Assembly (NCBI GenBank): GCA_000004695.1
Contig: CM000153.2
Span: 864,001 to 928,000 of the forward strand
Length of the DNA stretch: 64,000 nucleotides
Direction: 5' to 3'
Origin: Dictyostelium discoideum
Lineage: Eukaryota
Made by a program: the position numbers and the translations under genes. The notes under the pieces are model-generated. The model had not been told where the DNA came from. It saw only the letters and a list, made by a program, of their open reading frames with translations, and ran no database searches. Shown piece after piece: positions 34,627 to 35,084 of the stretch. Position 1 is the stretch's first letter, and each line of letters opens with the position of its first letter.

Positions 34627-34962
34627 TGTAATATAAAAATATGTAAATTTTTACTTCTTTGTACAAAAATAAAAGAGAATTTGAATAATGAAATTTTAAT
34701 TTCAAAAAATTATTCTTTTTATTTTTTGTATTGATTTTATTAAAAAAAAAAAAAAAAATAATTATAATAATAATTTTTTTTTTTTTTTTTTAATTTTAAT
34801 TAAACCAATTGGGTGTTTTCAAATATAATCAGGTGTTGATTTAATAAAAAGTAGGGGTGTGGGAATCAACACAGACTTACAAAAAAATTTAAATTTAGTG
34901 ATTTAACACAGACTTACAAAAAAAACTTTTTTTTTTGTAGGTCTGTGTTAAATCACTAGAAA

Positions 34963-34985
34963 ATCACATTCTCCCACACACCACC
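34963..34985 (-). promoter_or_regulatory. Conserved upstream module of cbp copy A: TGTTAAATCAC-N6-ATCACATTC followed by a C-rich (sense-strand G-rich, G-box-like) tract
   Basis: ggtctgtgttaaatcactagaaaatcacattctcccacacaccacc lies about 330 bp upstream of the copy A ATG. Equivalent modules are at 36424-36464 (copy B), 38787-38829 (copy C) and 42062-42103 (copy D). Confidence 0.5.
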
Positions 34986-35084
34986 TTTTTTTTTAAATTT
35001 TTTATTAATAATAAAAATTAATGGTAAATATTATGACTTAACCATTTATATTATCCAACTGTTTATTAATTTTTGAAATGTTAC

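Follow-up and report, generated by a model that had tools for sequence, protein, structure and literature searches.

A candidate composite upstream element shared by the tandem cbp genes of Dictyostelium discoideum

The four tandem cbp genes of Dictyostelium discoideum share a compact upstream module in which a G-rich tract is joined to a doubled TGTGATT. Judged from its sequence, the module is plausible as a candidate composite cis-element of a fairly ordinary kind. We lean towards reading it as a composite regulatory element from the upstream part of one ancestral cbp promoter, copied with the gene at each tandem duplication. No description of the motif was found in the published literature searched, which covered the motif string, the cbp promoters and motif-discovery papers.

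The analysis covered a very A+T-rich stretch of 64 kb, the whole of which is called the window here. Its 33.7–41.8 kb interval contains a tandem array of four minus-strand genes with four exons apiece, whose products are EF-hand proteins of 166–174 aa. Copy A (33740-34626, minus strand, 4 exons) encodes an EF-hand protein of 171 aa, named 'calcium-binding protein F-like' in AX4. Copy B (35270-36163, minus strand) is cbpF (CBP6), with a product of 174 aa that is 100% identical to the AX4 protein. Copy C (37650-38526, minus strand; 169 aa, AX4 calcium-binding protein G) is cbpG (CBP7), and copy D (40900-41779, minus strand; 166 aa, AX4 calcium-binding protein C) is cbpC (CBP3). A published table lists cbpC (CBP3), cbpF (CBP6), cbpG (CBP7) and CBP12, the last with 171 aa and three introns, on chromosome 4 (PMC1634994); copy A is probably CBP12, a name inferred in this analysis. 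No further cbp-like coding sequence was found in the 64-kb window. The AX4 paralogues (33740-41779) differ pairwise by a dS of 0.10–0.27 with dN/dS of 0.65–1.33, and their exons are conserved no better than their introns, which places the proteins under relaxed or diversifying selection. Two profile searches returned no relatives beyond the D. discoideum species complex, and no cbpC/F/G-type protein from D. purpureum. For comparison we used orthologous and paralogous loci from six other Dictyostelium assemblies. The ACTFIR and ACTFIW assemblies are labelled D. discoideum, and their orthologues are just 79–88% identical in protein; the short Logan contigs proved to derive from a CBP13-type locus and from the cbpC gene of D. 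discoideum itself. The cluster also contains decayed passenger sequence whose ORFs are broken and which recurs between the cbp copies at 85–93% identity (37044-37206, 39300-40580 and 42770-43600). This sequence carries a hairpin-forming element of ~130 nt, for which Rfam gives weak miRNA-like hits on both strands at 43408-43544, and a related element sits upstream of the ACTFIR cbpC orthologue.

The motif TGTTAAATCAC-N{5,6}-ATCACATTC has four exact matches in the window, all on the + strand (34946-34971, 36427-36452, 38793-38817 and 42061-42085), and none in 100 dinucleotide-preserving shuffles. Each lies upstream of one of the four genes, 274–330 bp before the ATG and about 170–250 bp from a TATA-like block, which bears out the claim of the first-pass annotation that a promoter module precedes every cbp copy. 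The recurrence is beyond chance, but the copies are non-independent, being paralogues of one duplicated promoter. The core that had been claimed for copies B to D stands as far as the four exact core matches go; copy D, however, lacks gtctgtg and reads gatgagtgttaaatcac. On the gene strand the order is an A-run, a G/T-rich tract, (G)AATGTGATTTT, 3–4 nt, GTGATTTAACAC(AGAC) and an A-run. The forward module of copy A occupies 34946-34985 (minus strand; GGTGGTGTGTGGGAG + AATGTGATTTTCTAGTGATTTAACA), and the minus-strand modules of the other copies lie at 36422-36464 in cbpF (G11 + AGAATGTGATTTTTTTGTGATTTAACACAGAC), 38788-38826 in cbpG (GGGGTGGGGG + AATGTGATTTTTTGTGATTTAACACAGAC) and 42061-42102 in cbpC (TGGGTGGAGGTGGGAGT + GAATGTGATTTTTTGTGATTTAACA). 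The C-rich runs that follow the cores on the + strand are, from copy A to copy D, ctcccacacaccacc, c11, cccccacccc and actcccacctccaccca; in gene orientation the tract varies between copies in sequence and length (8–19 nt), its G/T-richness being constant. In copy D, homology to the other copies stops just upstream of the G-tract. One extra, inverted occurrence of GTGTTAAATCAC (34898-34909) is restricted to copy A. The two TGTGATT sites are direct repeats whose start-to-start distance is 11 bp in copy A and cbpF and 10 bp in cbpG and cbpC, that is, one helical turn; the corresponding ATCAC half-sites had been put about 13 bp apart, which these spacings of 11 bp (copies A and B) and 10 bp (copies C and D) correct. 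The modules are 31–38% G+C and the surrounding upstream DNA 14–17%, so they do stand out as GC-containing islands, as had been noted. Promoter dissection in Dictyostelium routinely aims at the few G/C clusters as candidate elements (PMC3253789).

The four AX4 copies are alike mostly through recent tandem duplication and shared ancestry, and the module must be read against that baseline. In the same gene pairs, introns are 87–96% identical and exons 83–97%. The module has 24 of 28 columns invariant (86%), compared with 67% of intron columns (P=0.025, a single-window value) and 53% of the columns in all other non-coding DNA (P=0.0003). Windows of module size that are as invariant number 11 of 1132; the other 10 all lie in introns, and the module is the top window of the upstream DNA. 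Its G/C columns are all invariant (8/8), compared with 9/47 elsewhere upstream, and it ranks highest in information-weighted conservation across a 10-sequence, 420-bp promoter alignment. The module had been described as conserved, and indeed no other upstream block is as invariant; conservation across the copies, though, is mostly explained by duplication. Because dS is only 0.10–0.27 and the introns are so similar, close comparisons are low-powered; the excess of the module over the intron baseline is marginal, and these comparisons lend weak-to-moderate support to constraint.

The same figures bear on neutral hitch-hiking, in which the module would be a not-yet-diverged or gene-conversion-homogenised stretch with no specific regulatory role. 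We consider this rather unlikely. Introns conserved as well as exons or better, two thirds of intron columns invariant with ten intron windows matching the module, and the low paralogue dS are what it would predict. The mosaic form of the upstream conservation, in which conserved blocks alternate with indel-rich A/T spacers and the module ranks first among the blocks, argues against it. A further copy of the distal half-site, gene-strand TTAATGTGATTT, occurs in intron 2 of copy A (34174-34183), cbpF (35705-35714) and cbpC (41325-41334). It is also present in the ACTFIR and ACTFIW orthologues of copy A (FIR_10143 and FIW_16056) and in ACTFIY, is degenerate in the cbpG lineage, and is absent from that intron in D. 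citrinum and D. dimigraforme.

Among the other blocks of the promoter alignment, block IV is the most deeply conserved. It reads ATATTTGTAAACACCCAAT on the gene strand (minus strand; 34808-34826 in copy A, 36346-36364 in cbpF, 38715-38733 in cbpG and 41988-42006 in cbpC) and is kept as TTTGTAAACACCCAAT in D. citrinum and D. dimigraforme. Block IV resembles a CA-rich element, and it is loosely like the ACCCA-type element found upstream of Dictyostelium non-coding RNA genes. Most copies have a Myb-type YAACKG core, in the form CCAACTGTT / AACAGTTGG, in each of two conserved promoter blocks: at 36366-36376, 38734-38746 and 42007-42019 in one, and at ~35050-35062, 36549-36560 and 38898-38910 in block I. 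Two metagenome scans that used the module and block IV as queries returned either nothing or unrelated DNA alone.

The module precedes 10 genes in four genomes (AX4, ACTFIR, ACTFIW and ACTFIY); the ACTFIY gene is single-copy and lies at a different locus, with neighbours unlike those of the clusters in ACTFIR and ACTFIW. Intron 2 of D. citrinum, like that of D. dimigraforme, has no visible similarity to the others when set side by side with them and judged by eye. GGGTGAT is nevertheless found at -232 in D. citrinum (inverted), at -189 in D. dimigraforme and at -208 in a CBP13-like paralogue, where the background is 0.026 per 600 bp with both strands counted, although the pattern was picked post hoc and the nominal probability is therefore optimistic. 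In D. dimigraforme, a compact GCAGTGGGTGATTTAATGCAG falls between block IV and the end of block I, with a second, GGTGGTGATTTTTTGGGGGAG, present in inverted orientation; an exact GTGATTTAA lies at -187 (background 0.021 per 600 bp, one strand). The D. citrinum promoter carries GGGGTTGGGGTGAT in inverted orientation at -232 and, at -553, ATGATTTAACACAC with C- and G-tracts on its flanks. In the CBP13-like paralogue, which shares 55–65% protein identity, a 60-nt G/T tract runs into GGGGTGATTGTGAT at -208. This pattern points to a constrained core made of the G-tract and GTGAT(T), variable in position and orientation, as would be expected of a factor-binding site, and retention of that core in two species with a visibly dissimilar intron 2 and in so divergent a paralogue speaks against hitch-hiking.

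The module has also been lost. In the cbpC orthologues of ACTFIR and ACTFIW, insertions removed it from the proximal promoter while the ORFs stayed intact; the module is thus not indispensable for gene retention, a point in favour of hitch-hiking. In ACTFIW the displaced module (L005:5880-5905), parted from the cbpC orthologue by an insertion of ~4 kb, has degenerated, which goes the other way. Three further loci deserve mention. An orphan module with block III and no gene behind it lies in ACTFIR (L001:11396-11470) and is probably what is left of a cbpF-type copy that was deleted. A CBP13-type locus, recovered from the same sequencing runs as D. discoideum cbpC, has GGGGTGGTTGTAAAAC (L010:100-145); its GTGAT repeats are deleted, and it is also without an obvious start codon. 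The ACTFIW paralogue has GGGGTGATTGTGATGTTTGTAAAAAC (L006:5740-5830).

Copy A carries the most elaborate form of the module. The palindrome reported there, with arms given as ~28 bp, is real: it spans 34896-34958, with arms of 30 nt (34896-34925 and 34929-34958) that are 97% complementary around a 3-nt spacer, and folded as single-stranded DNA the region reaches -33.3 kcal/mol (z = -7.8). Its right arm belongs to the normal copy A module, and its left arm duplicates that sequence in inverted orientation. Also present are a 25-nt direct repeat (34863-34887 / 34900-34924, 92%) and, further out, a G-box/C-box pair (34840-34864 / 34972-34996, 80%). Together, direct and inverted repeats delimit a second, collapsed inverted copy at 34854-34887 on the + strand (GGGGTGTGGGA + ATCAACACAGACTTAC + A7), in which the G-tract and AACACAGAC are kept and both TGTGATT sites are gone. 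An independent assembly, GCA_054883475.1, which is 99.4% identical to the window (0.6% of positions differing), has an identical palindrome, so it is not the artefact of one assembly. It is absent from the promoters of the copy A orthologues FIR_10143 (ACTFIR) and FIW_16056 (ACTFIW), where an ordinary block III (TTTAATG.AAACTTGCTTCA) follows the module. In D. discoideum copy A, block III is replaced by ~85 nt consisting of two inverted partial module copies, one faithful (GTGATTTAACACAGACTTAC-A8) and the other collapsed to the G-tract and ATCAACACAGACTTAC-A7. The palindrome is best read as specific to the D. discoideum lineage, as represented by the window and one independent assembly, and as the product of a fold-back duplication followed by a 37-bp tandem duplication. 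These events would have swapped block III for inverted partial modules, created the palindrome and given the promoter sites in both orientations.

A near-perfect palindrome with 30-nt arms and so strong a fold, together with weak miRNA-like Rfam hits, could also be the mark of a mobile-element remnant (a terminal inverted repeat or MITE) or of a hairpin RNA, and we searched for motif copies in the window and across some 160 kb from related Dictyostelium loci (L001-L008). Apart from a few near-matches that do not resemble the module, every occurrence of GTGATTTAACAC and of the tandem TGTGATT..GTGATTT lay either upstream of a cbp gene or in one of two remnants, an orphan promoter and a displaced one. 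Both arms copy the adjacent promoter module, and the orthologous promoters are ordinary at the same place. Rfam models over 34885-34965 score at best 22.5–25.6 bits against gathering scores of 80–90, and an RNA role is unlikely because the palindrome lies upstream of the TATA-like block. A mobile or RNA origin is thus highly improbable. A transposon terminal inverted repeat or MITE was rejected, dispersed copies unrelated to the cbp family not being found in the window and L001-L008; a structured RNA or miRNA precursor was rejected on Rfam hits below the gathering scores.

Elements bound by G-box binding factor (GBF) comprise two G/T-rich half-sites near each other, for example in the cprB, cotC and lagC promoters. 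The GBF consensus, (T/G)G(T/G)G(T/G)G(T/G) (PMC2257962), is matched on the gene strand by all four modules, at 34974-34982, 36454-36464, 38818-38826 and 42096-42102, and the collapsed inverted copy of copy A has its own hit on the + strand (34854-34862). Long tracts hold overlapping matches, and the G-tracts upstream of cbp relatives are likewise G/T-rich. A second match, TGGGTGT, lies in block IV on the other strand ~100–150 bp away in three of the four copies, the exception being cbpC, which reads GGGTAT there. The consensus is loose, however, with 56 hits in 39 clusters across the 64-kb window where 23 hits are expected. The proposed resemblance to a G-box therefore survives in part: all four tracts match, but the match is of low specificity and the bZIP factor DimB is also a candidate. 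The resemblance of the module seems to us acceptable but non-specific, and tracts that vary while remaining G/T-rich would fit a low-specificity reader.

DimB binds CCCCAC-type sites (PMC3253789). Like site S (CCCCAC) of the DimB-bound ecmA and pspA promoters (PMC3253789), the cbpG tract contains CCCCAC exactly (+ strand), and cbpC and copy A contain the 5/6 variants TCCCAC or CTCCAC. The motif is absent from cbpF, whose tract, unlike those sites, is pure C11 with no CAC. What the module shares with the G-box/CA-rich elements of GBF, for instance in the sigN promoters (PMC2257962), is a short G/T-rich island in a promoter of ~85% A+T and a consensus match in either orientation. GBF elements are often paired, and in three of the four promoters here a second match occurs in block IV. 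The module differs in that the cbp G-tract is fused to a tandem TGTGATT, which is part of no described G-box.

Published expression data set cbpC and cbpG apart from typical GBF targets and bring in the GATA factor GtaC. Of the putative direct targets of GtaC, 23 are classed as 'cAMP-responsive', and cbpC and cbpG belong to this set (PMC4506546, Supplementary Table 4 and Data 2). The GtaC binding score is 4.96 for cbpC, with DE scores of 6.2/9.9/5.4, and 7.46/6.76 for cbpG, with DE scores of 5.2/5.8 (PMC4506546, Supplementary Data 2); both genes show strong GtaC-dependent expression from starvation sensing or early aggregation, and ChIP-seq signal at early aggregation (PMC4506546). cbpF appears in a separate sheet of that supplement only, and copy A was not found in the PMC4506546 tables under two neighbouring dictyBase identifiers, both guessed. 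CBP12 is strongly induced in cAMP-pulsed cells (PMC6830349), and CBP7 expression is reported at the slug stage (PMC5824019). The 'post-aggregative' setting suggested at first for the module thus does not agree with the published data on cbpC and cbpG: early-aggregation, cAMP-pulse targets of GtaC are atypical of post-aggregative GBF genes.

The GtaC data raise the alternative that the tandem (T)GATT cores are themselves non-canonical GATA-type sites for GtaC or another GATA factor, with the module acting as a cAMP-pulse response element and the G-tract secondary. The membership of cbpC and cbpG in the target set, with DE scores up to 9.9, would suit it. We nevertheless judge it improbable. WGATAR and GATC are absent from all four modules, which have GATT cores only. 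WGATAR sites occur elsewhere, at -223 and -121 in cbpG and at -243, -162 and -110 in cbpC; the copies in blocks III/IV and V, on the opposite strand, are 38745-38750 and 38646-38651 (cbpG) and 42018-42023 and 41889-41894 (cbpC), and in cbpF the block V site alone is retained. Since canonical sites sit in other conserved blocks, GtaC binding is explained without the module, and they would be enough for the ChIP signal. Copy A, with the most elaborate module, has no WGATAR at all. The GtaC reading of the TGTGATT sites was accordingly demoted once the GATA-site scan had found WGATAR outside the module. The cbp promoters resemble other GtaC target promoters of cAMP-pulse genes (PMC4506546) in that cbpC and cbpG are bound, GtaC-dependent and equipped with conserved WGATAR; the difference is that these canonical sites lie in blocks III/IV and V, the module offering GATT alone.

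We therefore return to the composite element inherited from one ancestral promoter. Duplications carrying the module would have produced the cluster of cbpC, cbpG, cbpF and copy A (probable CBP12). A factor of the G-box/CA-element type may read the G/T-rich tract, GBF being the obvious candidate and DimB-type recognition of CCCCAC an alternative. A second factor would read the two direct TGTGATT sites, one turn apart on the same helix face. Both factors together would form an enhancer ~170–250 bp upstream of the TATA-like block. The module would cooperate with the GATA sites of neighbouring blocks, where GtaC probably drives cAMP-pulse and aggregation-stage expression. A bolder proposal, which we hold only tentatively, is that the tandem TGTGATTT pair with its fused G/T-rich tract is the site of a new Dictyostelium factor that, with a G-box factor, gives aggregation-stage expression to the cbp family, a family characterised here as young, fast-evolving and lineage-restricted.

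The sigN group 2 promoters offer a published parallel, being near-identical among clustered paralogues and having conserved G-rich boxes that were taken as factor sites (PMC2257962). For the cbp genes the intron and dS baseline was measured as well, and most of the conservation among paralogues proves uninformative alone. The caution applies generally: motif identity among tandem paralogues says little before it has been compared with the neutral baseline of the duplicated unit.

In Dictyostelium, the cognate factor is known for few cis-elements. The module is compact and clearly delimited (~40 bp), and it comes with natural variants: 10- versus 11-bp spacing, losses by insertion, the inverted duplication of copy A and the compact form of D. 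dimigraforme. Because it lies upstream of GtaC-dependent, cAMP-responsive genes, it would be convenient for affinity purification of a new factor and for questions of cooperation between GtaC and a G-box factor. If a new factor does bind here, the copy A palindrome would represent an enhancer duplicated naturally and recently, with an altered output of copy A (probable CBP12) as the result.
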